DNA of 64,000 bases from the NCBI GenBank assembly GCA_963668695.2, contig CAXXLQ010000004.1, positions 512,001-576,000 on the forward strand. Reading direction: 5' to 3'. A program made the position numbers and the translations under genes. This document shows positions 1,641-54,454 of the stretch, in pieces (within the stretch, counting starts at the first letter, position 1; the number at the start of each line of letters is the position of its first letter). The DNA is from Vicinamibacteria bacterium. Its GTDB lineage: Bacteria > Acidobacteriota > Vicinamibacteria > Marinacidobacterales > Marinacidobacteraceae. The notes under the pieces were generated by a model, which worked only from the letters and a program-made list of their open reading frames with translations, was not told where the DNA came from and made no database searches.

Positions 1641-2156
1641 GCAATCCGTGAACAAAGTCGCGCGAGCGCTTAACAGCCTGTGGTGGAACCCGGGTGAGCG
1701 CCGAGGTCGGTGAGGGGCCCGGCTGACAAGGCGCGTGAGGGAGGAGCCCCCACCGGGAGAACTGGCCCGGGTGTATTCCGACCGAAACGCAACGATGAGC
1801 GGCGCGAAGCAACGCGGTTGATGGACAGCCGGTCACCGGTGGATGGATCGCCGGCCGAACGCCGCCTGGGTTTTGCCACAGGCTGTTAACAGCCTGTGGT
1901 GGAACCCGGGTGAGCGCCGAGGTCGGTGAGGGGCCCGGCTGACAAGGCGCGTGAGGGAGGAGCCCCCACCGGGAGAACTGGCCCGGGTGTATTCCGACCG
2001 AAACGCAACGATGAGCGGCGCGAAGCAACGCGGTTCAGCCGGGATGGATCGCCGGCCGAGCCCCCACCGGGAGAACTGGGCCGCCCGGGTTTCACCACAG
2101 GCTGTTCAACGCCCAGCGGGAGAACCGGGCCGAGTACCTTTGTCCACGGGGCTGCC
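1641..2156 (+). mobile_element. Two tandem MITE A copies (1671-1888, 1887-2105) nested within remnant ends of an older copy
   Basis: Two full CAGCCTGTGG...CCACAGGCTG units share a TTAA junction. Partial left end at 1641-1669 and partial right end at ~2138-2155. Confidence 0.8.
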
Positions 2157-2168
2157 AGGACCGGCTGG

Positions 2169-2921
2169 TCAGGCCCCGCCCGAGCCCATGCTCCGGGCCA
2201 CCGTCAGGACATCCACCGGCCCGGCGCCAGCCCGGATCAGGGTCCGTACGGCCGCCTCCACGGTGCTCCCGGTAGTGAACACGTCGTCAACCAGAAGGAG
2301 GGGCCGGCCAACCAGTTGTTCAGGAAGCCGCCTTACCCGAAAAGCCCCCCGGACATTGCGGCGGCGGGCGCTCGGGGTGACCAGGGTTTGCGGAGGTCGA
2401 GCTCGCCGGCGCAGCACACTCCGCACCAGCGGAATCCCGAGCGCCCGGGCGACCGGCCTGGCGAGTTGTTCCGCCTGGTTGAACCCTCGACGTCGGCGGC
2501 GCCAGAACGGCAGGGGAACCGGGAGGACGGCGGCGGGAAGCATCGCCTCGCCGCCGGCTTCGCGATCCCTGGAAGCGTGACGGAAGGCGTAAGCGGCAGG
2601 CCCTGCCAGAAGCTCGGCGAGCACCTCCCGACGCCGGAACTTCAATTCAAGCAGGGCCCGCTGAAACACACCCTCGTAGGGCGCCGCCGCCACCGCCATC
2701 CGGAAAGGCCGCTTACGCACCCGGCATTCACCGCAGAGCCCCGGCGCCGCCGAAGGAGCGAAGAACAGGCCGCATTTCGGGCAGGCGGGGGCCGTCAGGG
2801 GACGGAGCCGGTCCACACACCCGGGGCACACCGGGCTGAGCAGGGGGTCCTCGAGAAATCCTTCACAAAGGCAGCAGCCCCGGGGGAAGAGGAGTTGTCC
2901 GAAACAACGCCTCCACCGCAT
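2169..2921 (-). CDS. comF: ComF family protein (double zinc ribbon + phosphoribosyltransferase fold)
   Basis: LFPRGCCLC, CPGC, CPKCG, CGEC, RGFNQA and LLVDDVFTTGST motifs. Start could be 2978. Confidence 0.9.
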   Translation of the reverse strand: MRWRRCFGQLLFPRGCCLCEGFLEDPLLSPVCPGCVDRLRPLTAPACPKCGLFFAPSAAPGLCGECRVRKRPFRMAVAAAPYEGVFQRALLELKFRRREVLAELLAGPAAYAFRHASRDREAGGEAMLPAAVLPVPLPFWRRRRRGFNQAEQLARPVARALGIPLVRSVLRRRARPPQTLVTPSARRRNVRGAFRVRRLPEQLVGRPLLLVDDVFTTGSTVEAAVRTLIRAGAGPVDVLTVARSMGSGGA

Positions 2922-3055
2922 TGCGAAGGATCCTCCCGCGGAATCCGGCAGGCGCCTCGGGTAGGGCTGCTCGGCCATGGAACGCAAACCCTTGCGGGAG
3001 GGGGGAGAGGAGGCCTGAGGCAAGCGAACTCCGCGGCGAGGACGCGAGAAGCCTT

Positions 3056-3873
3056 TTAGAGGATCCGGTAGTCCGTCAGGACACCGGCGGCGCACAACCT
3101 GACGTAGAGGTCCGTGACCATTACCCAGACCAGGCTCGCCCACGCGAAGTTCAGGTGGCGCAGATTCAGCCAGCTCATGCAGTCATAGGCGCACCGGCGC
3201 AGCGGCCGTCCCGACAGCCGGTCGAGGAACCCGCCCGCCAGGTGCCGCAACGAGTGACATCCCAAGGTGTATCCCGCGAGCAGCGCGGCGTTCACGGCCA
3301 TCACCACGGTTCCGACTCCGACGCCGAAGGAGACCTCCCCGGTGGCAGGATCGGCGAACTGGGTCGCTCCCCAGGTGTAGTAGAGATGGAATCCGATGAA
3401 GACCACCGCGACGTAGAGGAAGTAGCGGTGGACGTTTTGCAGGATGAGCGGGAAGCTGTTCTCGCCGCGGTAGACGTTCCACGGTTTGCCCACCGTGCAG
3501 GAGGCCGGACTGGCCCAGAAAGCCTTGTAGTACGAACCGCGGTAGTAGTAGCAGGTAAGTCGCAGCCCCGCCGGCGCCCAGAACAGGAACACACCCGGCG
3601 TCCAGGGCAGCAGAGCCGGCCACGCCGCGGGTTTCGGTCCGAACCAGGCGTGGGCCGTATCACCGAAGAGCACCGGCACGTGGATGGGCGATACGTAGTT
3701 GCCGAACTCCGCACCGTGATGCGCGAAGACCGCCCAGGTCGAATAGACGACGAAGACGCTAAGGCCAACGAAGTGGCCGTCGGTGTGATCCACCAGGGAT
3801 CGCGGCGCCTCGTGGCCCCGAAACGCTGCGGAACGGGTAGGACACCGCTGAGTCGGGGGAGCAATCGAGCCAC
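3056..3873 (-). CDS. Succinate dehydrogenase type F membrane anchor (Rv0249c-like) with a 1-nt frameshift near 3773
   Basis: RLTCYYYRGSYYKAFW, QNVHRYF and GCHSLRHL motifs. The N-terminal FGATRRRDPWW is in a different frame (GTG 3873) and joins FVGLSVFVVYSTW if one base is restored. Confidence 0.75.
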
Positions 3874-3887
3874 GCGGGCAGGAATTC

Positions 3888-4072
3888 TAGCGGCCTGTGG
3901 ACAAAGTGGCGTGAGCGCCGAGGCCGGTGAGGCGCCCGGCTGACAAGGCGCGCGAGGGAGGAATACCTGGTGTATTTCGACCGAAGCGCAACGATGAGCG
4001 ACGCGACGCGGCGTGGTTCAGCCGGGATGGATCGCCGGCCGAACGCCGCGTGACCTTGTCCACAGGCTGCTA
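3888..4072 (+). mobile_element. MITE family A copy
   Basis: TA-GCGGCCTGTGG...CCACAGGCTGC-TA ends and the conserved core. Confidence 0.85.
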
Positions 4073-4077
4073 GGCCA

Positions 4078-4130
4078 GGAGCGCCGGTCTTCAGACCGGC
4101 ATCGTGGCCCGAAGGGCCGCGAAACTCCCA
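4078..4130 (+). repeat. REP-like hairpin family B
   Basis: GGAG-CGCCGG-TCTTCAGA-CCGGC plus a second hairpin and GCGAAACTCCC tail, recurring elsewhere in the window. Confidence 0.7.
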
Positions 4131-4193
4131 AACTCAGCCACGCCCATCACCCGGACCCAACCCGGGACGGCGTAGCGCCGCTGCCCCGAAGGG

Positions 4194-5549
4194 TCAGACG
4201 GCCAGGGGCGGGGATCCCTCTGGCTCGCCGACGGGTACCCGGGGTCCCTCCTCCACGTCGAGATGCACTCCTCCGTACGTTCCGCACTCCGCGCAGGTAT
4301 CGCGCCAGTCCGGGCTGCGGGTTCCGCACACGGAACAGCTGTACTCGGCGGAAAGTGCCGGCTCCGCGGAAATGACCTCCCGGGCTCGGATCACCGCTTC
4401 GGCCAGATCGCCGCGGCCCTCCAGGATGCGCGAGAGGCGGGCGCCAAGTGCCGGGGCAGCCGACCGGGGCAGGTTGGCGAACATCTTGAGGGCATCGTCC
4501 AGCATGTAGAGGCGGTCGTACAGCTTTCCGAGCAGGTACTGGCTGTCGCCCGGGTTCTCAGCGGCGGTGATCGCTCGCTTCCAGACCGAGATCGCGTCCT
4601 CGGGACAGGTCCGGTCCAGGTAGTAGTCCTGGAGCGCGGAGAGGGGCGCCGTGGCTCCCGTCAGGTCGAACGCCTTCTGCCAGGTCTCGACGGCAGCCCT
4701 TTCGTTACCCCCGGCCAGGTACGCCTCCCCGAGGCGCACCCAGGCGGGTACAGCGCCGGGATCCTCCTCAAGGATGGCCCGGAAGACCCGCGCCGCCTCG
4801 GCCGGCTCGCCGTTGTCGAGCAGTTCCCTGCCGTACCTATGCCGGAGCGACAGCGTGCGCTGCTCTTCCGCAGCGCGGGCGGAGGGAGGAACGTGAGACA
4901 CCAGTTGCTGCTGGACCGACAGGGCGGCCTGGTTCTCGCCCGAGTCGACGAGGATGTCCCGCAACCGGGCGAGGGCCGTGATCGGAGCCTCGGGATCCTC
5001 GGAAATCGTTTTCTCGAGCAGCGCACGCGCCTGCTCCGGTTCTCCCATCGCCACCCGGGCCTCGGCCAGCGCGTACGACACCTCGCGATTCCCGCGATCC
5101 TCGGCCGCGGCCTGCTCCAGCGCTTCCGCAGCTTTTTCCGGCCGGCCGAGGCGTATGAGGCAATCGGCCTTGCGGCGGAGTGTCTTGATGTCGGCTCCCG
5201 CGTACTCCTGGGCGGCCTCGAAGCTCAGCAGCGCCTCCGGCCAGCGTCCGGATGCCATCTCATCGAGCCCGTCGAGATGCAGCCGCTCGCCCTCCTCGAG
5301 ATCCTGACGACCGCGGCGGAGGCGCCGTTCCCGAACCAGCCGCCGAACGCGTCCCGCGAGATCGAAAGCCAGCGCGACGGCGGCCCCGAGGCCCACGCCG
5401 CCGAGCATGACCTTCCAGAGTTCCACCCGAATCGGAAGGAAGAGCGGCAGGGTGACAGTCACGAACTGCGCGTTGGAAGCCACCACCACAACGAGGAAGC
5501 CCGCCGTCAGAAGGACCGCCGCCACAAGCAGCAGGGTGCGAATGCCCAT
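4194..5549 (-). CDS. LapA-LapB-like fusion: N-terminal membrane hairpin, TPR repeats and C-terminal rubredoxin-like domain
   Basis: ATG 5549 (MGIRTLLL). Two hydrophobic segments with NAQFVTVTL, TPR-like helices, and YSCSVCG...CAECG. Confidence 0.8.
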   Translation of the reverse strand: MGIRTLLLVAAVLLTAGFLVVVVASNAQFVTVTLPLFLPIRVELWKVMLGGVGLGAAVALAFDLAGRVRRLVRERRLRRGRQDLEEGERLHLDGLDEMASGRWPEALLSFEAAQEYAGADIKTLRRKADCLIRLGRPEKAAEALEQAAAEDRGNREVSYALAEARVAMGEPEQARALLEKTISEDPEAPITALARLRDILVDSGENQAALSVQQQLVSHVPPSARAAEEQRTLSLRHRYGRELLDNGEPAEAARVFRAILEEDPGAVPAWVRLGEAYLAGGNERAAVETWQKAFDLTGATAPLSALQDYYLDRTCPEDAISVWKRAITAAENPGDSQYLLGKLYDRLYMLDDALKMFANLPRSAAPALGARLSRILEGRGDLAEAVIRAREVISAEPALSAEYSCSVCGTRSPDWRDTCAECGTYGGVHLDVEEGPRVPVGEPEGSPPLAV

Positions 5550-5574
5550 CGGATCTCTATCTTTTGGTCGGATT

Positions 5575-5988
5575 CTAAGGGGTGTCCGGGGTGTCGGCGG
5601 CGGCGGCGGCGACCGCGGGTGGCGGCTCCGGATACCAGCGCCCGGCGTCGCCCCAGAGTCTTTCGAGCTGATACAGCTCGCGGCTCTCCGGCGAGAAGAC
5701 GTGGACCACGAAATCCACGTAGTCAGCGAGCAGCCAGCCGGCGGCCGGATACCCCTCGACGTGGTTGGGCTTTCGGCCAAAACGCTCTCGGAGGCGACGT
5801 TCGACGGCGTCCACGATCGTCCTGCGCCGCCGCTCGCTGCGTGCCGTGCCGATCACGAAGAAATCGGTGAAACCCGCAAGACCCCGGAGGTCGAGTACCA
5901 CCACTTCGTCGGCCTTTTCGATCAGCGCGGCCTCAGCCGATAGCCGGGCGCACGACTCTGCGGTGACGCTGGGAATGGATTCGCTCAA
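5575..5988 (-). CDS. rsfS: Ribosome silencing factor RsfS
   Basis: KADEVVVLDL, DFFVIGT and WLLADYVDFVVHVF...RELYQLERLW motifs; follows nadD. Confidence 0.95.
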   Translation of the reverse strand: MSESIPSVTAESCARLSAEAALIEKADEVVVLDLRGLAGFTDFFVIGTARSERRRRTIVDAVERRLRERFGRKPNHVEGYPAAGWLLADYVDFVVHVFSPESRELYQLERLWGDAGRWYPEPPPAVAAAAADTPDTP

Positions 5989-6656
5989 CGGTAAAACTCC
6001 TGTTCGGCGATGCGGGAAGCAACCCGGGAAGGCAGGAGATCGGAGACGGAAACCTGCGTACGGAGGAGTTCCCGAATCCGCTGGGACTCGGGATCCGGGA
6101 GGGAAATATCCATGGTGAAGACTCGCGGCGGCGTCAGGGGCAGGGAAAGATCATCAGTGATCCGGGACCGGAAGCGGGCAGGCAGAACGCCGACCGCCTC
6201 CGCGATGGAACATCCCGACCGGCGATGCACGAGGACCGGATGCCGGTTCAACAACTGCTCGTACCGGCTCCAGGTGCGGATTTCCCGGAACGCGTCCGTG
6301 CCGACCACGAACAGCACCGAAGCGCCGGCGCCGCTCGTCCGGGGCCGTTCGGCCGCCAGCGTATCGAGGGTGTCGAGTGTGAAGGACGGACCCTCGCGCT
6401 CGAGCTCGATGGAACTCGCCAGCAGGCGATCCCGGCCGAAGACCGCTTCCTCCACGAGCTGGAGCCGCTGCCGGCCCGAAAGACGCGGCGGCTCGGGGCG
6501 GTGGGGAGGAATCTTCGCCGGCACGAGCCAGACGGCATCGACCCCCATACGGTCGCGAACGGCTTCGGCCGCACGGACATGCCCCCAGTGCGGGGGATCG
6601 AAAGTCCCGCCGAACACCGCAATCACCCCGGGGCGCCGGACGGCAAAGTCCTTCAC
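5985..6656 (-). CDS. nadD: Nicotinate-nucleotide adenylyltransferase
   Basis: FGGTFDPPHWGH, PPHR, SFTLDTL and FVVGTDAF motifs; obg-nadD-rsfS synteny. Confidence 0.93.
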   Translation of the reverse strand: MKDFAVRRPGVIAVFGGTFDPPHWGHVRAAEAVRDRMGVDAVWLVPAKIPPHRPEPPRLSGRQRLQLVEEAVFGRDRLLASSIELEREGPSFTLDTLDTLAAERPRTSGAGASVLFVVGTDAFREIRTWSRYEQLLNRHPVLVHRRSGCSIAEAVGVLPARFRSRITDDLSLPLTPPRVFTMDISLPDPESQRIRELLRTQVSVSDLLPSRVASRIAEQEFYR

Positions 6657-7672
6657 GCCTCGGTCCGCCCTGCGTCGGTTGGCACCACCCGGGCGACAAG
6701 CTCGGCCACCAGGGCGGCGCAGCCCTCGCCGGTTGCCGCCGAGACTGCGAAGAAGGGCAAGCCTCCAGTCGCCGCCGCTCCGGAGAGCGCCTCAAGCCGG
6801 GCATCGTCGGTCAGGATGTCCGTCTTGTTGCCCACGACCAGGGCCGGTTTCCCTGGGAGGTCTCCGCCGTAGAGGGTCACCTCTTGCTGCAGGACGCCGA
6901 GATCGGCCGCCGGCGCCCGCCCCGACGACTCCGAGAGATCCACGAAATAAACCAGGAACGCGGTTCGCGACAGATGTTTCAGAAACCGCGTGCCCAACCC
7001 CGCGCCCTGGCTCGCCCCGGGAATGAGGCCGGGGAGGTCGGCGACCACGAATTCGGCGTCGTCCCCCAGCCGCACGAGCCCCAGATTCGGAGTGAGGGTC
7101 GTGAACGGGTAATCGCCGATGCGCGGCTTGGCAGCGCTCACCCGGGCAATGAAGGAGGACTTGCCGGCATTCGGAAAACCCACGAGGCCCACATCCGCAA
7201 GCAGCTTCAGCTCAAGCCGGACCGTGCGGGCGACCCCTGCCCCGCCGGGCTCGTTGCGCCGGGGCGCCTGGTTGGTGGGTGTCCGGAAGACGGCGTTCCC
7301 TCGTCCTCCGCGACCGCCGGGCGCCACCGTGAGGGAGCTTCCGTCCTCCACGAGATCCCCCAGCAGCACGCCCGTTTCCTCGTCGAAGGCCGCCGTGCCC
7401 GCAGGAATTCGCAGGAGGAGATCCTGCCCCGAACGCCCCTGCCGATTGTTGCCCGACCCGTGCCTCCCGGCTTCGGCCCGGTAGCTGGGCCGGTAGCGAT
7501 ACGCAGCCAGCGTGTGACGCCCCCGATCCGCAACCAGCACCACGCTGCCGCCGCGTCCCCCGTTACCGCCGTCGGGACCGCCCCGCGGCATGAACTTTTC
7601 CCGGCGAAAGCTGAGAGCGCCGTTCCCGCCGCGCCCTCCGGCCAGCTTCAGGACGACCTCGTCAACCAGCAT
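6653..7672 (-). CDS. obgE: GTPase ObgE
   Basis: MLVDEV...GGPDGGNGGRGG Obg fold, GFPNAGKS, YPFTT, DLPG and NKTD. ATG at 7672. Confidence 0.97.
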   Translation of the reverse strand: MLVDEVVLKLAGGRGGNGALSFRREKFMPRGGPDGGNGGRGGSVVLVADRGRHTLAAYRYRPSYRAEAGRHGSGNNRQGRSGQDLLLRIPAGTAAFDEETGVLLGDLVEDGSSLTVAPGGRGGRGNAVFRTPTNQAPRRNEPGGAGVARTVRLELKLLADVGLVGFPNAGKSSFIARVSAAKPRIGDYPFTTLTPNLGLVRLGDDAEFVVADLPGLIPGASQGAGLGTRFLKHLSRTAFLVYFVDLSESSGRAPAADLGVLQQEVTLYGGDLPGKPALVVGNKTDILTDDARLEALSGAAATGGLPFFAVSAATGEGCAALVAELVARVVPTDAGRTEA

Positions 7673-7680
7673 CAGCCACT

Positions 7681-7857
7681 CGTGGGGGAAGCGCCCCGCA
7701 CTGTTTCCTGGACGAAAGTCCCGCCGAATGTGCCGGTGTTTCCGAGTGCGGGGCGCTTCCCCCACGGGGTGATGCCGCGGTTCGCTTCGCGATCCGCGCC
7801 ATCGTTCTTCCTGGGGAGGGGAAACCCCTCGCCACCCCCGCGGCGCTCCGCGCCGGG
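7681..7857. repeat. Repeat family C (long inverted repeat plus GC hairpin)
   Basis: GTGGGGGAAGCGCCCCGCA...TGCGGGGCGCTTCCCCCAC. Related sequence at 30755-30940, 49725-49775 and 50127-50219. Confidence 0.7.
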
Positions 7858-7880
7858 CATCGAAACTCCCTTGCGCGCCA

Positions 7881-7949
7881 GGAGCGCCGGCCAGTTCTCC
7901 CGGTGGGGGCCTTCAGACCGGCATCGCCCGCGCAGGGGGCGAAACTCCC
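7881..7949 (+). repeat. REP-like family B carrying the 20-bp module in its loop
   Basis: GGAGCGCCGG-[CCAGTTCTCCCGGTGGGGGC]-CTTCAGACCGGCATCG...GCGAAACTCCC. Confidence 0.75.
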
Positions 7950-8277
7950 AATTTTCCGTAGCCGGGTTCCAGAGCGGTATCCGCGAGCGCGCTGCGGCGA
8001 GTTCCGATTCGTTGTTGCCTTTTGGTGAAAGGGGGGATGCCCCCCTTTCACACTTTCCCCCCGGTCTCGCGGGCAGCGAACAGAGTTCGCTGCCGTAAAT
8101 CTTTGCGCGCTCGGCGAGACGCGGCACAAAACCCCGGCGTTCCCACCGGTAGCGGTGCCCGACCGGGCACCCACCCGGAAGAACCCGCGGTGCACTCATG
8201 TCAGTTTCACCACGGCATCCGGACGGTCCGACGCGTCGGTCGGGGTTCGGCCGTTCGGGAATCCCCCCCTCGGGGAA

Positions 8278-8532
8278 TCAGTCCGAAGCGATCGAAATGA
8301 ACCGCCCGAGCCGGCCGCGGTTCCAGAACTGAACGACCCCGCCGATCTTGGCGAACAAGGTGTCGTCGTTCCCGCGCCCGACATTCGCGCCCGGCTTGAA
8401 CCGCGTACCCCGCTGCCGAACCAGGATGCTCCCGCCCGATACGCGTTCTCCGGCGAAGCGCTTGCAGCCGAGCCGCTTCGAGTGGCTGTCTCGCCCGTTT
8501 CTGGAGCTTCCCTGTCCCTTCTTGTGCGCCAC
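8278..8532 (-). CDS. rpmA: 50S ribosomal protein L27
   Basis: [16 protein letters not shown]...IVRQRGT-like motifs. Confidence 0.98.
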
Positions 8533-8613
8533 GGTGACCTCCTGAGTGTCTCAGCCGCTTTTCTTCCGTCGTGACTTTTGTCCTGGCGTGCGCCCGACCC
8601 GCAGCGAACCGAT

Positions 8614-8976
8614 TTACTCCGCTGCGGCGGATCCGTCTCCGCCTGTCCCGTCCGGTGTTCCCTCGTGAATGGCCTCCACGAGAACCTGAACGCGAGCCTG
8701 CCGATGTCCCTTCTTTTTCCGGTAACCCTTGCGCCGCTTGCGCTTGAACACCAAGATCTTGGGGTCTCGGTAGTGCGCGAGAACGGTTGCCGAAACCGTC
8801 GTATCCGACAGGTAGGGACTGCCGATGCGGCACTCGCCGCCTTCCGGATCCCGCACCATCAGGACGCGGTCAAACGAAACGGTGTCGCCATTGGCGGCGT
8901 CGAGCTTTTCCAGCGCAAGGCGCTGGCCGGGCTCGGCGCGGTGCTGTTTGCCGCCGCTCTCGATGATTGCGTACAT
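8614..8976 (-). CDS. rplU: 50S ribosomal protein L21
   Basis: MYAIIESGGKQH...KRKRRKGYRKKKGHRQ. TAGAAT -10 at 9004-9009 on the minus strand. Confidence 0.98.
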   Translation of the reverse strand: MYAIIESGGKQHRAEPGQRLALEKLDAANGDTVSFDRVLMVRDPEGGECRIGSPYLSDTTVSATVLAHYRDPKILVFKRKRRKGYRKKKGHRQARVQVLVEAIHEGTPDGTGGDGSAAAE

Positions 8977-9049
8977 GAGGTATCTGCCCGGAGAAACGCG
9001 GGATTCTAACAGTCGAGAGCGTATTGCAGGCCGCTCCGAAGTACGGACA

Positions 9050-10360: not shown

Positions 10361-10731
10361 GGACGGCGCCGCCGGGTGCGGAACCGGAAGAGGCAGGGCT
10401 CATAGGCAGGGCTCGATAATTCGAGGGCTCCGGGAAAGCGAACGGCGCTGGCACTGGCGAGGGTCGCCGGACAGCAAGCCTCACAGGCGAGATCGGGTCA
10501 GCGCGCCCGCAGGCACACGGAACCAAGTCTGCCGATCCGCGGATCGGAGTCCTCTGGAACGTCGATCGTTCTAGCGGGGAGAACCCTCCGTCGCTAAAGA
10601 CCGGGTCACTCTGGGTGGGGAACGCACCGGCAATGAAGCCGCGTCATCCCCCAGCGAATCCGAGAAGCAATTCTAGCACGCAAGCGGTCTTTTGCCGACA
10701 GGAATCCGGGTGGCCCGAACGCGGCGCGCGG

Positions 10732-11082: not shown

Positions 11083-11138
11083 GATGCCCTCCCGCCGGCA
11101 ATCGTGCCGACTCTCATCCGGGATTGTGGCGCAGTCTG

Positions 11139-11351
11139 GCAGTCTGTGGATAACGTGACGTGAGCGCCGAGAGCGCCAGTTCTCCCGGTGAGGGCGAGGC
11201 GCCCGGCTGACAAGGCGCGCGAGGGAGGAGCCCCCACCGGGAGAACTGGCCCGAGCGTACTTCGACCGAAGCGCAACGCCGGGCGACGCCCGGAGCGTTC
11301 AGCCGGGATGCATCGCCGCTCGAACGCCGCGTGACGCTGTCTACAGGCTGC
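11139..11351 (+). mobile_element. MITE family A copy with two 20-bp modules
   Basis: GCAGTCTGTGG...CTACAGGCTGC ends and conserved core; lies just upstream of hisS. Confidence 0.8.
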
Positions 11352-18809: not shown

Positions 18810-18939
18810 GGGACCGTTCGCCAGTCCTCCCCGTGGGAGCCTTCAGACCCGCATAGCCCCCGGAGGGCCAGGAACGCCGGCCAGCTCTCCCGGTGGGGGC
18901 CTTCAGACCGGCATCGCTCCCTGGAGGGGAGCGAAACTC
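18810..18939 (+). repeat. Two REP-like family B copies, each with a variant 20-bp module
   Basis: Modules at 18821-18840 and 18881-18900, each followed by CTTCAGACC(C/G)GCA. Confidence 0.7.
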
Positions 18940-30720: not shown

Positions 30721-31346
30721 ACTGCCCGTGGCGAACGACACCAGCGTCGGCCGGCGGCGCGGAGCGCCGCAGGGGTGGGGTGCGGGGAGGGGTTCCCCTC
30801 CCCGCGGAAAAGGATGGCGGGAATCGCACAGCGATTCCCGTCATCACCCCGTGGGGAAAGCACCCCGCATTCAGAGAGTCTCGCAGAGCCAACTCTCCTC
30901 GTGGCGGAGGGAGGATGCGGGGTGCATTCTCTACGGGCTGCTAGCAGCCTGTGGTGAAACCCGGGTGAGCGCCGAGGTTGGCCAGTTCTCCCGGTGGGGG
31001 CGAGGCGCCCGGCTGACAAGGCGCGTGAGGGAGGAATACCTGGTGTATTTCGACCGAAACGCAACGATGAGCGGCGCGAAGCGACGCGGTCAACAGCCGG
31101 TGGTGGAACCCGGGTGAGCGCCGAGGTCGGCCAGTTCTCCCGGTGGGGGCGAGGCGCCCGGCTGACAAGGCGCGTGAGGGAGGAATACCGGGTGTATTTC
31201 GACCGAAGCGCAACGATGAGCGGCGCGCAGCGACGCGGTCAGCCGGGATGAATCGCCGGCCGAACGCCGCGTGGGTTTCATCACCGGCTGTTTGGCCGGG
31301 ATGGATCGCCGGCCGAACGCCGCGTGGGTTTTGCCACGGGCTGCTA
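30721..31346 (+). mobile_element. Composite repeat cluster: family C element followed by two tandem MITE A copies and an extra right end
   Basis: CTAG junction at 30941-30944, MITE cores at 30942-31090 and 31092-31290, and a final CCACGGGCTGC-TA that supplies the DUF4013 stop. Confidence 0.8.
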
Positions 31347-36795: not shown

Positions 36796-37016
36796 TAGCA
36801 GCCTGTGGTGGAACCCGGGTGAGCGCCGAGAGCGGGGAGGCGCCCGGCTGACAAGGCGCGTGAGGGAGGAATACCGAGTGTATTTCGACCGAAACGCAAC
36901 GCAGAGCGCCGCATAGCGCCAGTTCTCCCGGTGGGGGGGCGGTTCAGGCGGGATGCATCGCCGCTCGAGCCCCCACCGGGAGAACTGGGCCGCCTGGGTT
37001 TCACCACAGGCTGCTA
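36796..37016 (+). mobile_element. MITE family A copy with two 20-bp modules
   Basis: CTAG-CAGCCTGTGG...CCACAGGCTG-CTAG. Confidence 0.88.
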
Positions 37017-45134: not shown

Positions 45135-45198
45135 CCCGCTGGCGGCGATCAGGTGGATCGGCGGCGATCAGGTCGGTTGGCGCCGATTGCCGGGTCGA

Positions 45199-46994: not shown

Positions 46995-47043
46995 GGACTC
47001 GTTCCTTTTGTTTGTGCGGAGGGAAGGGCGGAAGTATTGCCTT

Positions 47044-47264
47044 CAACAGCCTGTGGCAAAACTCACGCGGCGTTCGACGGGCGATGCATCCCGGCTGAAC
47101 TGCCCCGCTTCGCGGTGCTCTGCGTTGCGTTTCGGTCGAAATACACCCGGGCCAGTTCTCCCGGTGGGGGCTCCTCTCTCACGCGCCTTGTCAGCCGGGC
47201 GCCTCGCCCCCACCGGGAGAACTGGCCGTCTCGGCGCTCACGTGAGTTTTGCCACAGGCTGTTA
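47044..47264 (-). mobile_element. MITE family A copy, reverse orientation
   Basis: Reverse-complement core with two 20-bp modules. Confidence 0.85.
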
Positions 47265-47847
47265 GGCGCTCCGCGGCGCGGCCCACGCACACATCGCCCC
47301 AATCCATCGGAAAAACGAGGTCGGCGACACCCGCCGCGCCGGCGAGGTAGCGCCGCTGCGCCGGGATCACCATCGTCTCGAACCGGTCGCGCACCTCATC
47401 CGCCGAATAGGAGCGCCCCGCGCCATCCCTCTGGATGCGCCTCGAGAGCAGTTCATCGAGATCTCCCTCCAGCAGAATAGAGAGATCCGCCGCCTCGCGG
47501 ACCCGGGAATCCCAGAGGGCAAAGACCCCCTCCGCGACCACCAGGTTCGTCGGGCCGAGGGATCCGGACACCCGGCGCGCTCCGGTGCCGAAGTCGTAGG
47601 CGAAACGGGGGACGGTCCGACCGGAACGGAGCGTTCCGAGATGTTCGGCGAACAGATCGAGGTCATAGGACTCCGGCTCGTCGTAGTTGACCTTGGTGCG
47701 ATCGCTTCGGGACAGGTGGGAGGTATCCCGGTAGTAGTCGTCCTGGGAGAGCACCACCGGCTCCCAACCGGGAAACCGTTCCGCCAGAGCCCGGGCGAAG
47801 CGGGTCTTGCCGGCACAGGTCCAGCCGGCGATGGCGGCCACCCTCAC
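47191..47847 (-). CDS. udk: Uridine kinase family protein; last ~24 codons are MITE-derived
   Basis: IAGWTCAGKT, QDDYY, NYDEP, YDF, EGVFAL and RRIQRD. Confidence 0.82.
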   Translation of the reverse strand: MRVAAIAGWTCAGKTRFARALAERFPGWEPVVLSQDDYYRDTSHLSRSDRTKVNYDEPESYDLDLFAEHLGTLRSGRTVPRFAYDFGTGARRVSGSLGPTNLVVAEGVFALWDSRVREAADLSILLEGDLDELLSRRIQRDGAGRSYSADEVRDRFETMVIPAQRRYLAGAAGVADLVFPMDWGDVCVGRAAERLTACGKTHVSAETASSPGGGEAPG

Positions 47848-47913
47848 GCCCGGAACCGGCGGACTCCCGTCAGATTCCCCGTCAGATTCCCCATCAATTT
47901 CAAGGTCCGGCGC

Positions 47914-48153
47914 TAACAGCCTGTGGTGGAACCCGGGTGAGCGCCGAGAGCGGCCAGTTCTCCCGGTGGGGGCGAGGCCCAGTTCTCCCGGTGGGGGTCC
48001 GGCTGACAAGGCGCGTGAGGGAGGAGCCCCCACCGGGAGAATGGGCCCGGGTGTATTGCGACCGAAACGCAACGCAGAACGGAGCGAAGCGGAGTGGTTC
48101 AGACGGGATGCATCGCCGCTCGAACGCCGCCTGGGTTTCACCACAGGCTGCTA
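47914..48153 (+). mobile_element. MITE family A copy with three 20-bp modules
   Basis: TA-ACAGCCTGTGG...CCACAGGCTGC-TA. Confidence 0.85.
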
Positions 48154-49628
48154 CCGGCGTCCAGCACCCGCTCGAGCGCCGCCCGGGCCTCGCGCGCGTC
48201 CACCTTCCCCCGGAGTTCGCGCATCAGTTGGCCCACGAAGAAACCGATCACCTTCTTCTTGCCGGCGCGGTAGGCGTCCCGGTCCGCGGGGTGTGCGGCG
48301 ACCAGCCGGGTGGCGATCTCGTCCAGCCGGGCTCCGCCGGCCAGGTCGGCGAACCCCAGGTCGCTCATGAGTTCGCGGGCGGCGCGTCCGCTCTCGCACA
48401 TCGCGGCGAAGACCTCGCGCGCGGCGTTTCGCGGCAGTTCCTTCGCCGCCAGCAGATGCATCAGTTCACCGAGCCGTTCCGGCGCTACCGCGAGCTTTCC
48501 GTCCGCTTTCTCACGGGACGCGACTTCAGTGGTAATCCAGCCCGCGGCAACCGTCGCCGCCTGCCCGAGAGGCGAACCGGCGGCCGTCGCGGCGGCCAGC
48601 GTCGCCTCGTAGTAGTCCGCCAATTCGCGGCGCGCGGCAACCCGCTCGGCCTGATCGGCGGCGATCCCATGTTCGCTCCGGTAGCGGGCCGCGCGAGCGT
48701 CCGGGAACTCGGGAAGCTGACGACGCGCCGCATCCAGCAGGCCTTCCGGGAGCCGGAGCGGGGGAAGGTCGGGATCCGGGAAGTAGCGATAGTCGGCAGC
48801 GTCTTCCTTGCTGCGCATGGGCTCCGTGATCCCCCGCGCCTCGTCGTAAAGACGCGTCTCCTGGACGACCGGCCGTCCGGCGGCCAGGAGTTCGCGGTGC
48901 CGTTGCTCTTCGTACTCGAGGGCCCGGTGGAGGAACCGGAAGGAGTTCAGGTTCTTGAGCTCCACCTTGACCCCGTAACGGGGTTCCCCGCGCCGCCGGA
49001 CCGAGATGTTGCCGTCCATGCGGAGGTTGCCCTTCTCCATGTCCGCATCGGACACCCCGCAATAGACGATCCGGCGCCGTACCTCCCGCGCGTAAGCGCA
49101 GGCTTCAGCTACCGAGCGCATTTCCGGGTCACTCACGATTTCGATGAGCGGTACGCCGGCCCGGTTGAAATCCACTCCGCTGCGCCGGTCGGAGCCTCGG
49201 AAACCATCGTGGACCAGCTTTCCGGCGTCCTCTTCGATCTGGATCCGGTTGATCCCGATTGTGCGGTCCACCGCCTCGGAATCCGGGCCCGCGTCCAGCC
49301 GGACGCGGACGGCCCCGGCCTCCGCCAGCGGAAACTCGTACTGGGTGATCTGGTAGCCCTTGGGAAGGTCCGGATAGAAATAGTGCTTCCGTTCGAAGAC
49401 CGACTCTTCGTTGATTTCGCAGTCCAGGGCGAGCCCCGCGAGCACCGCGAGTTCCACCGCTCTCCGATTGGGTACCGGCAACGCTCCCGGGAGGCCGTAG
49501 CACACCGGGCAGAGGTGGGTGTTCGGCGGCGAACCGAACTCGTTCCGGCAGCCACAGAAGAGCTTCGTCCGGGTATCGAGCTGGACGTGCACCTCCAGCC
49601 CGATGACGGTTTCGAAAGCGTCGGTCAT
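48138..49628 (-). CDS. gatB: Asp/Glu-tRNA amidotransferase subunit B
   Basis: IGLEVHVQL, YFYPDLPKGYQITQ, NRAGVPLIEIV and YRYFPDPDL; the stop lies inside a MITE. Confidence 0.97.
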   Translation of the reverse strand: MTDAFETVIGLEVHVQLDTRTKLFCGCRNEFGSPPNTHLCPVCYGLPGALPVPNRRAVELAVLAGLALDCEINEESVFERKHYFYPDLPKGYQITQYEFPLAEAGAVRVRLDAGPDSEAVDRTIGINRIQIEEDAGKLVHDGFRGSDRRSGVDFNRAGVPLIEIVSDPEMRSVAEACAYAREVRRRIVYCGVSDADMEKGNLRMDGNISVRRRGEPRYGVKVELKNLNSFRFLHRALEYEEQRHRELLAAGRPVVQETRLYDEARGITEPMRSKEDAADYRYFPDPDLPPLRLPEGLLDAARRQLPEFPDARAARYRSEHGIAADQAERVAARRELADYYEATLAAATAAGSPLGQAATVAAGWITTEVASREKADGKLAVAPERLGELMHLLAAKELPRNAAREVFAAMCESGRAARELMSDLGFADLAGGARLDEIATRLVAAHPADRDAYRAGKKKVIGFFVGQLMRELRGKVDAREARAALERVLDAGSSLW

Positions 49629-49724
49629 CTAGCCCGGATCACGAAACACGCGGCGGAAACCTGCCGGCGCGGCTATTTCCGACACCCAACAGCGGGTGGC
49701 GACAGTCGGCCAGCGTCAACCTGC

Positions 49725-50222
49725 GGCGCGTAGCGCCGCAGGGGTGGGGTGTGGGGAGGGGTGTCCCCTCCCCACGAAAGACGGTGGCGCGAATCGCGCA
49801 GCGATTCGCGCCACAAGCAGCCTGTAGACAAAGTGACGTGAGCACCGAGAGTGGTGAGGCGCCCCGCTGACAAGGCGCGCGAGGGAGGAGCCCCCACCGG
49901 GAGAACTGGCCCGAGTGTATTTCGACCGAGGCGCAACGATGAGCCACGCGAAGCGGGGCGGCCAGTTCTCCCGGTGGGGGCCAGCCGGGATGTATCGCCG
50001 CTCGCTTCCGGAGCGGGGCGCGAGCACCGCGGAGACCCCGGAGCGAGAGGGACGGGGGACGGGTTCACCCGGCCCCCATCTCTCTTGGCTCGGGAATGCC
50101 GCGTAACTTTGTCCACAGGCTGCTCGCCCGTGGGGAAAGCGCCCCGCCTCCGAAGAACACCCGGGAATGGGTGTGCCTCCCCACGTGGGCGTGATGCGGG
50201 GTGCTTTTTCCACGGGCTGCTA
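49725..50222 (+). mobile_element. Composite cluster: family C hairpin, MITE A (49817-50123) and family C inverted repeat
   Basis: Shared sequence with 7681-7857 and 30721-30943; the terminal CTAG provides the stop of the acyl-CoA ligase gene. Confidence 0.8.
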
Positions 50223-52007
50223 GTTCGCGTACAACGCTTTGATCTGGTCGGTGTACCGCTCCGCCACCACCCGACGCCTCACCTTCATGGTGGGCGTCAG
50301 TTCCCCGCTCTCGATGGAAAAGGCCGCCGTCACCACGGCGATCTTCTTGATTCGCTCGAACGACGCGAACCCTTCGCTCAACCGGTCGATCTCGGACATG
50401 AGGTGCTTCTGCACCCGGTTGTCGCGGGCTATCGCCTCCGGGCCGTCGGCAGGAATTCCCTTGCGTTTGCACCACCGTTCAAGCTGATCGAAGTCGGGCG
50501 CGACCAGCGCCGAGAGGAACGGCTTGCCGTCCCCGACCATTACCAGTTCCGTGATGTACACACTCGACTTGAGCCTCCCCTCGATCGGCTGCGGCGCAAC
50601 GCTCTTGCCGCCGGCGGTGACGAGCAGATCCTTCTTGCGATCCGTGATTCGCAAGAAGCCATCCTCATCAAACTCGCCGACATCTCCGGTGTGAAACCAG
50701 CCGTCCACGACCGCCTTCCGGGTGGCTTCGTCGTTGCCGAAGTACCCCTTCATCACGTTGTGGCCACGGCAGAGGATCTCGCCGTCCGCGGCGATCTTGA
50801 CGTCCACTCCGCGAATGGGAATACCGACCGAGCCGAACCGGAAGCGGTCGAGACGGTTCACGGTAATGACCGGCGAGGTCTCCGTCAGGCCGTAGCCCTC
50901 GATCACGACCCAGCCGGCAGCCAGGAAGAACTCGGCAACGTCGCGGGGGAGCGCCGCGCCCCCGGAGACGAAGAGGCGCACGCGCCCGCCCATCCGGGCG
51001 TGGAGCTTGCTGAACACCAGCTTCGTGGCCACCGCGTACTTCAGTTTCAACCCGACGGAAGGCGTGGTTCCGTCCTGGCGATGGCGGCCGACTTCGTAGC
51101 CGACCGCAAACGCCCAATTGAAGATCTTCTGCTTCAGCGGACTCCCGGCAGCAGCCGACTCGAGGACCCGGTCCCGCATCTTCTCGTAGAAGCGGGGCAC
51201 ACAGGCCATCACGGTGGGATGGACCTCGCCGATGTTCTGGACCAGGGTGTCCATGCTCTCGGCGATGGCGATCGTGACCCCGGCGTGCGGATAGAGGTAG
51301 TGGGCCACCATCCGGGCAAACACGTGGCTGTAAGGCAGCACCGAAATCGCCCGATCCTCCGGAGTGAGCCTCAGCGCTTCGTGGGAGGCCAGGGTGTTCT
51401 GAACGAGATTCTGCTGGCTGAGCATCACCCCCTTCTCCTTCCCCGTGGTTCCGGAGGTGTAGATGATGGTGGCGACGTCATCGCCGGAAACTGCCGCCGC
51501 GAGGCGCTCGGCCGCCCCGGAATCCACCCCGCGAGACCCCTTCCCCGCGTCCGTCACCGCCGACCAGGACCGTGCTCCCGAGCCCGCGACGGGAGGGTCG
51601 AGAGTGAAGATCATCTCGACGTCGGGCAGCGAATCCCGGACCTCGGCGATCTTCGCCTGTTGTTCGGCAGAAGACGCGATGACCACCCTCGCCCCCGAGT
51701 CCCGAATGATGTGGGCGGCCCGCTGCGCGGGGAGCGTCGGGTAGATCGGAACCGTGACCGCACCCAGGATCTGGAGTCCCGCCTCGATGATGAACCACTC
51801 CAGACGGTTCTCCGAAAGGAGCACCACCCGGTCTCCCTTCCGCACCCCCCGCATCGAAAGGCCCACGGCCGCATCCCGCGCAGCATCGAGCCAGTCCGCT
51901 GACGAGAGCTTTTTCCACTCGCCTCCCACCTTGTGGAGGATGGCGTCATCCTTGTTGTGCCGGGCACAGGCGGCGGCAAATAGCTGATTGATGGTCTGCG
52001 CTTCCAT
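50220..52007 (-). CDS. Long-chain fatty acid--CoA ligase
   Basis: IYTSGTTG, EGYGLTE, GWFHTGD, DRKKD and LTPTMKVRR. Confidence 0.93.
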   Translation of the reverse strand: MEAQTINQLFAAACARHNKDDAILHKVGGEWKKLSSADWLDAARDAAVGLSMRGVRKGDRVVLLSENRLEWFIIEAGLQILGAVTVPIYPTLPAQRAAHIIRDSGARVVIASSAEQQAKIAEVRDSLPDVEMIFTLDPPVAGSGARSWSAVTDAGKGSRGVDSGAAERLAAAVSGDDVATIIYTSGTTGKEKGVMLSQQNLVQNTLASHEALRLTPEDRAISVLPYSHVFARMVAHYLYPHAGVTIAIAESMDTLVQNIGEVHPTVMACVPRFYEKMRDRVLESAAAGSPLKQKIFNWAFAVGYEVGRHRQDGTTPSVGLKLKYAVATKLVFSKLHARMGGRVRLFVSGGAALPRDVAEFFLAAGWVVIEGYGLTETSPVITVNRLDRFRFGSVGIPIRGVDVKIAADGEILCRGHNVMKGYFGNDEATRKAVVDGWFHTGDVGEFDEDGFLRITDRKKDLLVTAGGKSVAPQPIEGRLKSSVYITELVMVGDGKPFLSALVAPDFDQLERWCKRKGIPADGPEAIARDNRVQKHLMSEIDRLSEGFASFERIKKIAVVTAAFSIESGELTPTMKVRRRVVAERYTDQIKALYAN

Positions 52008-52159
52008 GGGTCACCTCCCGGCGCCCATCTTAGTCAACGGCTCCCGCGCGCGCAGCCCCCGCACGCGCAGCCACAGCCCAGGATCGGCCGCGGTACCGGA
52101 GTCCACGGCCGACGGAACATCACGGATCGCCGGTCGGAGGGGGCCGCGCTGCCCGGCCG

Positions 52160-52300
52160 GGAACGCCGGTGTTCACACCAGGAGCGCTGGGCAGTTCTCC
52201 CGGTGGGGCCCTTCAGACCGGCATCGCGGCCGCAGGCCGCGAAACTCCCATCGCTAACCGCGAAAAAGCGCGGGGACGGCTGGGAGCGCCAGTCTTCAGA
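52160..52300 (+). repeat. REP-like family B cluster with a 20-bp module variant
   Basis: GGAGCGCTGG-GCAGTTCTCCCGGTGGGGCC-CTTCAGACCGGCATCG...GCGAAACTCCC, plus a further GGAGCGCCAGTCTTCAGACC. Confidence 0.65.
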
Positions 52301-52499
52301 CCTGTGTCGCGGCCCAGGGCCGCGAGAGCCCCTCCGTCGACGTTCATGGGTCAGCCCACCCCTATCGGGCCAGATCGCGCGACCAGAAACTTCCCGGTGT
52401 TCGGCGTCTACGCTTTGCGCCGCGTCGTCGCACCCCGACCACTGGGGCAATGCTGGTCCCCACCGGGAGAACCCTCTCCGCGCAGCGTCATCCCCTCCC

Positions 52500-53099
52500 A
52501 TGTTCGAACTCGTCTATCCCGTGGCGCTGTTCGCGGTCTCGATGTCCATTACCCCCGGACCCAACAACGTCATGGTGACCGCTTCGGGGGCGAACTTCGG
52601 ATACCGGCGGACGATCCCGCATCTCCTGGGAATCGGCCTCGGATTCCCGGCAATGGTTTGCGCGGTCGGGTTCGGTCTCGGGGGCGTCTTCGACGCGGTC
52701 CCCGAGGTACACACCGTCCTCCAGTACGTGGGCTCCGCGTACATCCTCTGGATGGCCTGGAAGATCGCAACGGCCAGCGGGATCAGCCGGGCGCAGCAAA
52801 AACCAGGGCGTCCGCTCACCTTCCTGCAAGCCGCCGGCTTCCAGTGGGTCAACCCGAAGGGCTGGGTGGTCGCGATCGGAGCGATCAGCGCATATACGAC
52901 CCTCCAGGGAGATCTCTTTTTCGAGGTCGGGGTGATCACGCTGACCTTCGCCTGCGTGAACTATCCCTGCGCCTCGCTCTGGACCCTCTTCGGGGTCGGA
53001 ATCGGGCGGCTCCTGAAGCGCGGCAGGTGGCTCCGGATCTTCAACGTGGCAATGGGGCTGCTCCTCGTCACCTCCATCGTGCCCCTGTTCGCCCGCTGA
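52500..53099 (+). CDS. LysE/RhtB family translocator
   Basis: SITPGPNN, Y..WMAWKIA and FQWVNPKGW. Confidence 0.92.
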   Translation: MFELVYPVALFAVSMSITPGPNNVMVTASGANFGYRRTIPHLLGIGLGFPAMVCAVGFGLGGVFDAVPEVHTVLQYVGSAYILWMAWKIATASGISRAQQKPGRPLTFLQAAGFQWVNPKGWVVAIGAISAYTTLQGDLFFEVGVITLTFACVNYPCASLWTLFGVGIGRLLKRGRWLRIFNVAMGLLLVTSIVPLFAR

Positions 53100-53262
53100 G
53101 CCAAAGGAGCGGTCAAGAGTCGGGATCCTGGCCCGGCGCGAGGGGTCCGCCGGCGATCCAGCGCTGGAGACATCCGTTCTCCTCCGGGCCCCTTACCCCT
53201 TCCTCGGGGACATCTCTCCGTGGGAGGGCGTAGCGAGCGGTCTGTTAGGATGCCGGGCTCAT

Positions 53263-54198
53263 ATGGCCACGGTGGAGGGGCGCGGGAATCCGGGCGCGAG
53301 CGCCGACAACCGTCCCGGTCCGCAGGTCCCCAAGGGCCTGTTCGTTCGCTGCGACGGATGCTCGGAGATCGTCTACGGACGGGCGCTCCGCGAGAACCTT
53401 GAGGTCTGTCCGCGTTGTGACTTCCACATGCGGCTCGGGGCGCGCGACCGCATCGAGATGCTCGTGGACGAGGGTGTGTATCGGGAGATCTCGGGGGGCA
53501 TCCGATCCAACGATCCGCTCCGCTTCCGGGACCGGGTGGACTACTGTGACCGGCTCCGCAAGGGAGCCGAAATCACCGGCCTCGACGACGCCATCATCGT
53601 AGTGCGCGCCGAGATCGAGCGGACTCCGGTGGTTCTCGCCGTCATGGAATACGCCTTCATCGGCGGCAGCATGGGCGTCGTGGTCGGCGAGGAGATTGCC
53701 CGGGCGGTGGAAACCGCTTGCGACGCACGCATCCCGCTGATCGTGGTCTCCTGTTCGGGCGGCGCCCGGATGCAGGAAGGCGCGCTTTCGCTGATGCAGA
53801 TGGCGAAGATTGCGTCGGCGCTCGCCGTACTCGACGACGCGGGAGTGCCCTACGTCTCGCTGCTTACCCATCCCACCACCGGGGGAGTCACGGCCAGCTA
53901 CGCGATGCTCGGCGATCTGAACCTCGCCGAGCCCGGAGCCCTGATCGGCTTCGCCGGCCCTCGCGTGATCCAGCAGACGATTCGCGGCGAACTGCCTCCG
54001 GGCTTCCAGCGTTCCGAATTCCTGCTCGACCACGGGATGCTCGACCGGGTGGTCCACCGCCGTGAGCTTCGCGGCGTGCTGGGCGGCCTCCTGCGATTCA
54101 TGTACGAGCCCGCCGGAGCGACGGCTTCAGCGGAGGAGGACACCGCCGCCAAGGTGCAGACCGCACCGGAGCCGGCGCTGGTCCGCGCCGTCCGATAG
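53263..54198 (+). CDS. accD: Acetyl-CoA carboxylase carboxyltransferase beta subunit
   Basis: CDGC...CPRC zinc finger, GGSMG, SGGARMQEG, PTTGGV and GFAGPRVI. Confidence 0.96.
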   Translation: MATVEGRGNPGASADNRPGPQVPKGLFVRCDGCSEIVYGRALRENLEVCPRCDFHMRLGARDRIEMLVDEGVYREISGGIRSNDPLRFRDRVDYCDRLRKGAEITGLDDAIIVVRAEIERTPVVLAVMEYAFIGGSMGVVVGEEIARAVETACDARIPLIVVSCSGGARMQEGALSLMQMAKIASALAVLDDAGVPYVSLLTHPTTGGVTASYAMLGDLNLAEPGALIGFAGPRVIQQTIRGELPPGFQRSEFLLDHGMLDRVVHRRELRGVLGGLLRFMYEPAGATASAEEDTAAKVQTAPEPALVRAVR

Positions 54199-54223
54199 AG
54201 CGGGCGCTCCATCCCGCTCCTGA

Positions 54224-54454
54224 ACAGCCGGTGGACAAAGTCGCGTGGCGTTCGGCCGGCGATCCATCCCGGCTGAACCACGCCGCTTCGCGTCGTTCAT
54301 CGTTCCGCTTCGGCCGAAATACAGCCAGGCCAGTTCTCCCGGTGGGGGCTCCTCCCTCGCGCGCCTTGTCAGCCGGGTTGTCAGCCGGGCGCCTCCCCCC
54401 CACCGGGAGAACCGCGGGCCTCGGCGCTCACGTCACGTTGCCCACCGGCTGTTA
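54224..54454 (-). mobile_element. MITE family A copy, reverse orientation, between accD and folC
   Basis: ACAGCCGGTGG...CCACCGGCTGT ends and reverse core. Confidence 0.85.

Follow-up and report, generated by a model that had tools for sequence, protein, structure and literature searches.

A short asymmetric module in variable number and position within two families of intergenic repeats of a Vicinamibacteria genome and its relatives

Mosaic intergenic repeats composed of interchangeable sub-units are well established in bacteria, among them the bacterial interspersed mosaic elements (BIMEs) of Escherichia coli, the pneumococcal BOX elements with their variable number of boxB units, and the neisserial intergenic mosaic elements (NIMEs), which include the 20-bp dRS3 repeat. 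At a comparable scale, the small dispersed repeats (SDRs, 21-27 nt) of Nostoc and Anabaena are said to share a stem-loop with their flanks, to be nested in other repeats and to have no coding capacity. Here we describe a module, recognized as the 20-mer GCCCCCACCGGGAGAACTGG, in a 64,000-nucleotide stretch of a Vicinamibacteria genome (the window, G000:C4:512001-576000 of assembly GCA_963668695.2, here G000; coordinates and strands of window features are window positions). It forms a separable component of two composite repeat families, a miniature inverted-repeat transposable element (MITE A) and a repetitive extragenic palindrome (REP B). Among MITE copies the module states occur in nearly free combination, and the state of a resident copy can change from one near-identical strain to the next.

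What the module shares with BIME, BOX and NIME repeats is the presence of short sub-units in variable number and combination within intergenic repeats, with tandem copy variation and differences between strains: the 434 oriented full-length copies of MITE A display 64 module configurations, with 0-7 modules per copy and tandems of period 18. What sets it apart is that one asymmetric 18-20-mer is found, in either orientation, at eight or more positions in the interior of a MITE that resembles a transposon, and that it breaks the stem of a palindromic REP unrelated to that MITE as well; at each site it takes the place of 1-3 bases. The resemblance to SDRs, as these are reported, lies in very small size, absence of coding capacity, nesting, presence or absence at orthologous places and lack of a known enzyme; on the other hand, the module occurs in another phylum, is unrelated in sequence and, in REP B, showed no stem-loop with its flanks, and homologous copying is favoured in its case. 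REPs and their doublets (REPINs), associated with REP-associated tyrosine transposases (RAYTs), are a further point of comparison. They are described in PMC3116915 (which names BIMEs) and PMC3733652, both of which also cite the SDR paper of Elhai et al. (2008, Genome Res 18:1484). Like the module, they are extragenic, reach high copy numbers, often form inverted doublets and serve insertion sequences as targets, and PMC3733652 gives a GTAG or CGTC tag for one end. The tag is absent from the consensus GCCCCCACCGGGAGAACTGG and its flanks on direct reading. By these marks the module is not a REP or REPIN: it is no palindrome, it has no tag, and no RAYT was found in the genome. Singlets, at sites b and d described below, are its commonest state, though adjacent inverted pairs are also numerous. 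An earlier description of this repeat was not found in a search that returned nothing under the genus name and was narrow beyond it.

The source assembly comprises 4.10 Mb in four contigs at 67% G+C and is 91.7% complete. Allowing up to three mismatches to the 20-mer, the window contains 22 matches (14 exact, four with one mismatch, two with two and two with three), against a chance expectation of 0.02, and none of 100 shuffles reached 22; with a 15-base partial copy at 52458, this bears out the roughly 23 occurrences listed in the initial annotation of the window, at exactly the positions given there. Genome-wide, 1,646 matches were found (962 exact, 535 with one mismatch, 104 with two and 45 with three), a figure that second haplotypes in the assembly raise by a few percent, and almost all of them lie in the two repeat families. 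Their density is about 400 per Mb on three of the four contigs, and this one 20-mer makes up approximately 0.8% of the genome. Information content is high across the 20 positions and falls sharply at both edges. Neither strand nor replichore bias is present in G000, although a strand bias of the kind known from FtsK-orienting polar sequences (KOPS) or Chi had been suspected from the order of matches in G018, a genome of another genus. The flanks are themselves repeated in 1,631 of the 1,646 copies, which is not the pattern of a DNA uptake sequence (DUS) or uptake signal sequence (USS), a motif that is scattered through genes as well and has no tie to mobile repeats; the other 15 proved on reading to be degenerate MITE or REP copies.

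The 20-bp unit originally proposed does have sharp edges, but what actually repeats is the 18-mer CCCCACCGGGAGAACTGG, with one or two junction bases added, since the net length change is 18 bp at sites a', b, c1 and d and 19 bp at site a and in REP B, and since tandem modules, of which there are 151 adjacent pairs, have a period of 18. Among the 434 oriented full-length MITE A copies, and in MITE orientation, the occupied sites are a (minus, position ~40, 136 copies), a' (minus, position 46, 163 copies), b (plus, position 75, 205 copies), c1 (minus, position 123, 48 copies) and d (plus, position 157, 169 copies); sites c2 and e and a plus-oriented insert at 36, in various orientations, are rare and found in few copies. 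These copies carry no module in 96 cases, one in 92, two in 83, three in 78, four in 56, five in 28 and seven in one, so that the estimates of 0-3 modules per MITE and about six positions made from the window were both too low. When modules are sorted by context, 1,360 of 1,645 fall into eleven classes, comprising the MITE sites d (308), b (305), a' (223), a (178), c1 (55) and c2 (6), tandem copies (161), and three REP B classes (124 together); the other 285 are mostly diverged versions of known classes, with a tail of rare positions.

Anchored extraction reveals two uniform alleles per position, the one empty and the other filled. At site b the empty allele ATA (269) stands against the filled allele, GC plus the 18-mer plus C (~304), and at site d the empty allele AC (247) against the exact 20-mer (271). 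Site a' displays three discrete alleles, namely an empty GC, a single module with junction base T, and a double that keeps GC and ends in C, and site c1 has a private variant in which module position 1 is always C rather than G. The earlier proposal that the module replaces only a few bases is confirmed by the comparison of the ATA and AC alleles with their filled counterparts (GGAGGA-ATA-CCGGG versus GGAGGA-module+C-CCGGG; CGA-AC-GCCGC versus CGA-module-GCCGC). REP B has the palindromic core GCCGGTCTTCAGACCGGC. Its modules stand after GCCGG in place of a single T, and either palindrome strand can be used, which gives classes v1 and v2; placement is the same in the variant palindrome REP B' (class v3). 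Empty forms carry A or G. Within MITE A, long hairpins form between inverted partners (a or a' with b; c1 with d), and 319 adjacent minus/plus module pairs with strong hairpins were counted. The 20-mer alone is without structure (-1.4 kcal/mol, z 0.45; 133 of 200 shuffles fold as well); in REP B it leaves the fold unstabilised, and no stem-loop of module plus flank is formed (z +1.48). The 18-20-mer has no terminal inverted repeats (TIRs) of its own and no common duplicated flank across sites, in which it departs from a MITE. Rfam returned no family at gathering scores, and a weak match to Pxr (E 0.087) was taken as chance.

The combinations of module states are largely unconstrained. All four gametes occur at every pair of sites, and sites are only weakly associated: the odds ratio reaches 4.3 for b with d and 3.4 for a' with d, it is about 2 for b with either a or a', and the remaining pairs show no association. 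The MITE A backbone is likewise reticulate: among 37 common single-nucleotide polymorphism (SNP) columns, four gametes are found in 95-100% of SNP pairs at all distances, with mean SNP-SNP r2 of 0.25 within 5 nt and 0.06-0.12 beyond. Also found were mini-MITEs consisting of TIR, module and TIR; together with the tandems of period 18 and a deletion between sites b and d described below, they mark modules as substrates of recombination. The view already taken in the initial annotation, that simple descent of one element is insufficient, is upheld by the 64 configurations, by the four gametes at each site pair and by the differences between strains.

Such differences could be read within the assembly itself, in which about 275 kb of second haplotypes, 97.6-99.7% identical to the main copy, are present: C1 against C4:304-421 kb (~99.5% identity), C3 against C4:3505-3538 kb (97.6-99.7%), and the head of C4 (C4:1-148000) against its tail (3780-3914 kb, ~99%). 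They probably represent co-assembled strains, and account for the 9.3% "contamination" assigned to the assembly. Over 275,104 aligned columns with 0.69% mismatches, and with 104 versus 106 modules, ten of about 105 modules differ between haplotypes, or approximately 10%, so that the presence/absence comparison proposed at the outset gave a positive answer. Seven of the ten are switches between alleles that are canonical genome-wide: T-single versus empty at a' (three cases), double versus T-single at a' (two), and filled versus ATA at b (two, in neighbouring units of one array). The other three comprise a 15-nt microhomology deletion leaving CCAGT, a 19-nt deletion between GCC repeats in REP B that yields the "G" empty form, and one complex difference. 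Two SNPs lie within about 10 nt of one a' switch, and another is clean across 580 nt. The switches reproduce site-specific alleles, including their private base variants, that are present hundreds of times elsewhere, which fits copying from another repeat copy rather than de novo insertion or excision: neither deletion nor de novo insertion can yield ATA, or a T-single from a double, and copying from another repeat can. In addition, one haplotype (C1) has lost the segment between modules b and d; among 36 orthologous pairs of MITE ends, some of them overlapping, 17 are identical, five differ by SNPs only and 14 differ in length; and the second haplotypes also show MITE-sized indels and kb-scale insertions.

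The copies in the window illustrate most of these states. Exact plus-strand modules occupy site b at 1746..1765 (MITE A copy 1673-1886) and sites b and d at 1962..1981 and 2060..2079 (copy 1889-2105). In the MITE A at ~11139-11351, a minus-strand module with one mismatch at site a (11176..11195) is the inverted partner of an exact plus-strand module at site b (11230..11249). A MITE A array starting at ~30943 has an exact minus-strand module at site a of its first (30982..31001) and second (31131..31150) units, both with site b empty (ATA). The MITE A at 36796-37016 combines the c1 variant with C at position 1 (36919..36938, minus) with an exact module at site d (36969..36988, plus), the two forming a long hairpin. 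In the reverse-oriented MITE A at 47053-47269, exact modules lie at site b (47152..47171, minus) and site a (47206..47225, plus). The copy at ~47918-48150 holds an exact module at site a (47954..47973, minus), the single allele of a' with its private T/A end variant (47979..47998, minus), and a module with two mismatches at site b (48026..48045, plus). A truncated MITE A at ~49816-50000 has an exact module at site b (49890..49909, plus) and another at the rare site c2 (49962..49981, minus; GCGG|module|CAGCC). In the reverse-oriented copy at ~54228-54457, site b is exact (54330..54349, minus) and site a degenerate with three mismatches (54396..54415, plus). REP B hosts an exact module at 7891..7910 (after GCCGG and before CTTCAGACCGGC), a degenerate one with three mismatches at 18821..18840, one with one mismatch at 18881..18900 and one with two at 52191..52210, all on the minus strand, the last being followed by a second, module-free REP B unit at ~52270-52300. 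The 15-base contiguous partial copy at 52458..52472 (plus) lies in non-repeated intergenic DNA and is conserved in G001, the closest species to G000 (94-96% identical); it is located about 40 nt upstream of an ATG, and more distant relatives do not align there.

MITE A, the principal host, has a 185-bp consensus (derived from module-free copies) with inverted ends of ~25 nt. Its terminal inverted repeats, small size and lack of coding capacity are those of a MITE, and identical TA is found on both sides in 210 of 483 copies, as a target-site duplication would give, although empty-site alignment gave no clean target duplication. G000 has 591 end pairs, 630 matches to a 17-mer element marker and roughly 600 MITE copies. 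Pfam matches identify gatB, hisS and the gene of an AMP-binding enzyme among the neighbours of the window MITEs, which lie between genes. By the coordinates of high-scoring segment pairs, G001 lacks each of the four MITE A insertions located between 46000 and 56000, which are young for that reason; comparison of orthologous MITEs across species accordingly found window insertions without a counterpart even in that genome. One of these, the MITE at 47053-47269, provides the last ~26 codons and the stop of ORF 47191..48144 (minus strand), of the PRK/uridine-kinase family, with the module at 47206 lying in the last codons. The claim that no module is in coding sequence consequently holds for nearly all copies, this MITE being the exception. 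At the REP B locus 52150-52320, two tandem units are present in G000, of which the first bears a module; G001 has a single hybrid unit that carries one (L119), and the unit of G008 (L120) is module-free, differences that would amount to unequal exchange among REP units. TIR pairs spaced 0.6-4 kb apart, examined for an autonomous partner of MITE A, enclosed nothing but ordinary genes flanked by two MITEs, and DDE_Tnp_1 elements were rejected because their ends are unrelated, save for a weak resemblance in L138. A DDE_3 (IS630-type) transposase ORF at G000:C4:666125-669565 (L166) has a MITE A with five modules on one side and a mini-MITE on the other, CTAG being present at each inner border, and is a candidate autonomous partner of the TA-flanked MITE A.

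Among 41 related genomes searched for the 20-mer (G000 included), 21 contain it: all 15 of the genus, together with members of four other genera of the family; none of 16 genomes from the order's two other families does. Copy number per carrying genome ranges from 1 to about 1,500. In public records the exact 20-mer occurs in at least 107 stretches with titles of Candidatus Marinacidobacterium, Vicinamibacteria and Acidobacteria metagenome-assembled genomes (MAGs); among the matches listed is one 6-kb contig binned as Gammaproteobacteria, and the locus is also present in sponge-metagenome contigs from several studies. All 15 genomes of the genus, and the four other genera, have the exact 20-mer as their consensus, while the 17-mer backbone marker of MITE A has drifted in G018, G019 and G043. 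Module load per MITE spans 0.02-3.8, approximately 100-fold, with 52 marker matches and one module in G020, and 93 markers and 11 modules in G010. G018 has a second module "dialect", GCCCCTACCGGGAGAACCGG, at site d (L017, L029, L031, L056), and the exact complement of this sequence sits inside GGCTGAC..GGCGCG in the same genome, both changes co-varying as an inverted pair; it also has further module positions (x, e and c3) and partial 13-nt tandem repeats of the module.

Insertion sequences of the IS110 family have a distinctive relation to the module in some relatives. IS110 recombination is conservative and its excision scarless, with a bridge RNA specifying the target (IS621, PMC11208160), and IS110 elements target REPs through bridge RNA (ISPpu9, PMC12288879). 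In G014 a 458-aa IS110-type element, of another type than that of G000 described below, lies inside the module in six of six located copies (L150-L155; junctions GGA-GCCC-CC^TATACGATCGG...GGAAAGT^CC-ACCGGGAGAACTGG), of which four are in REP-type contexts, one at MITE A site d and one in a context with a truncated right side; a seventh locus (L156) has no match to the element ends. In G009 three of three examined copies, of five found, are also inside the module (L157-L159). In both genomes the module is split at GCCC-CC^...^CC-ACCGG, with the core dinucleotide CC on both junctions. As with IS621 and ISPpu9, an element with a DEDD recombinase sits at a single exact position within a short repeat of high copy number, and the core dinucleotide is found at both junctions, but here this holds for G014 and G009 only, and the target is a nested module rather than a palindromic REP. 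The module is not the target of the single IS110-family element of G000 (C4:482 kb; L133, G000:C4:480899-484372), which lies in a REP B' arm at ccggaggtc^cggcg, and the same type is inserted at the same point in G004 (L146-L149) and G008 (L140-L145), with or without a module 9 nt upstream. A G018 lineage (L160-L162) targets the REP B left flank (ggagcgcc^), and the left ends of all these other IS110 lineages begin TATA. Insertion inside the module and scarless excision together make the module a landing site of IS110 in relatives, not an IS110 product; a longer element whose junction coincides with the 20-mer, for which the initial annotation proposed to look, was thus encountered in relatives, but as a user of the module. 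The link explains how the module is recognized, not how it originated.

We place at about one in two (a probability of roughly 0.5) the reading that the module is a sub-repeat shuffled by ectopic gene conversion, slippage and module-module recombination, its positions having been founded rarely by illegitimate recombination. Ectopic gene conversion among dispersed repeat copies would be the day-to-day homologous mechanism, supplemented by 18-bp replication slippage within tandem modules, by recombination between modules in direct orientation and by microhomology deletions; transposition of MITE variants already bearing different module sets would add variation. New positions might conceivably be founded, on rare occasions, by illegitimate, microhomology-guided copying from an existing site, often beside CCGG or GCGG in a loop, and the uniformity of the module could reflect concerted evolution among ~1,600 copies, a putative binding function, or both. 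Homologous processes with MITE transposition appear to be the best-supported proximate mechanism because strain-level switches reproduce existing alleles, slippage and both module-module and microhomology deletions are found, the backbone is reticulate, and neither a RAYT nor a reverse transcriptase (RT) was detected. The MITE insertions absent from G001, with the range of module load among genomes, fit amplification of different MITE variants. Several observations weigh on the other side. The strongest co-occurrence involves b and d, direct-orientation sites that do not pair, and exceeds that of the inverted partners, so that selection for hairpin pairs is not what keeps modules. Mean r2 between modules and SNPs is only about 0.01-0.02 beyond 5 nt, below SNP-SNP linkage, and identical masked backbones differ by up to four modules, several of the 20 discordant groups being one locus counted twice. 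The local rule shared by both strands of REP B, by REP B' and by MITE sites a and b, in which the module follows CCGG or GCGG and replaces T-rich bases, looks like a target preference. Extra positions in other genera and the tail of rare positions in G000 imply that non-homologous founding events recur, and the stability of the module consensus amid drift of the backbone marker hints at constraint on the module itself. Low backbone linkage, the CCGG/GCGG-T rule, the G018 positions and GCCCCTACCGGGAGAACCGG pair, and the unchanged consensus argue together for something more directed. Finally, the haplotype differences were read from assembled contigs only, short-read contigs from public runs being broken at the repeats.

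Against recombinational shuffling, the most credible of the alternatives, though itself unlikely, is that selection favours repeats bearing the module because a protein or RNA binds it (the MITE transposase, a host factor or a nucleoid protein, for example), which could coexist with recombinational spread. The motif is asymmetric with sharp edges; its exact consensus is retained across the genus and four other genera in which the 17-mer backbone drifts; its major-allele frequency (0.996-0.998) is above that of the backbone (median 0.983, mean 0.91); and an RNA-guided recombinase in relatives recognizes it as a unit. No candidate binder was identified, however, the module is essentially confined to repeats without positional or strand bias, concerted evolution of a large copy family can also give uniformity, and MITE spread does not require it (96 of 434 full copies lack it, as do nearly all MITEs of G020). 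Somewhat less likely again is a tiny mobile element, the 18-20-mer being copied by sequence- or structure-specific machinery into the loops of hairpin repeats beside CCGG or GCGG, from which it can also be removed. Such an activity would suit the at least 12 occupied positions in two host families and both orientations, the same relative position on both REP B strands, in REP B' and at MITE site a, the further positions in other genera, the change of ~10% of modules at 0.69% divergence, and module states nearly independent of backbone haplotype. Excision, on the other hand, cannot make the empty alleles ATA and AC, site-private variants of filled alleles recur in the strain-level switches, the module by itself has no structure (z 0.45), there is neither a target-site duplication nor a common junction, and the 52 markers with one module in G020 are equally explained by founder variants. 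Profile searches of G000, at 91.7% completeness, gave no match to PF01797 (Y1/RAYT; the control was positive in 6 of 14 genomes) or to PF00078 (RT), and its lone IS110 is unrelated in position. The boldest form of the idea, doubtful at best, would make the 18-mer a "nano-element", the smallest mobile DNA, copied into and removed from loop positions by CCGG/GCGG through an RNA- or structure-guided activity; it would explain the same site on both palindrome strands, new positions in each genus and the unlinked states. A dedicated enzyme writing the oligo, whether of the HUH/RAYT, RT-templated or IS110 kind suggested in the initial annotation, is not supported, given the profile results, the location of IS110 at a REP arm, the uniform alleles and the seven of ten switches that are canonical. 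That the module exists because of IS110 elements, as an attachment site spread or kept by their activity, is very improbable, and IS110 as its cause in G000 is largely refuted. The insertions inside the module in G014 and G009 speak for this link, as does the loose rise of IS110 counts with module counts over 28 genomes and the motif GAGCCCC...GGTGG at the G014 left end, a possible target guide of the sort expected in a target-binding loop; but 25 of 200 shuffles match that motif as well, which is not significant, and both assembly contiguity and general repeat load confound the correlation, with G000 (most modules, 1,497 at up to one mismatch, and one IS110, of the REP-arm-targeting type) and G019 (56 modules, no IS110) as exceptions. 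Conservative, scarless recombination, as described in PMC11208160, moreover cannot synthesise an oligo. An artefact (adapter, primer or assembly error), a possibility raised at the outset, can practically be dismissed, as the motif is carried by MAGs of several independent projects and by 21 of 41 related genomes, the locus recurs in contigs of runs from several studies, and the motif itself sits at set places within structured repeats.

As a natural example of how sub-repeats behave within bacterial MITEs the module is very clear, and its rate of turnover is measurable between co-assembled strains, at ~10% of modules for 0.7% divergence. On the favoured reading, ectopic recombination among small repeats can produce much structural variation in this uncultured sponge symbiont, and module states are usable as strain-typing markers. 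In sister species the module is a natural, high-copy target of IS110-family elements of the bridge-RNA type. Were it true that the module is actively written, it would represent a new class of mobile DNA.

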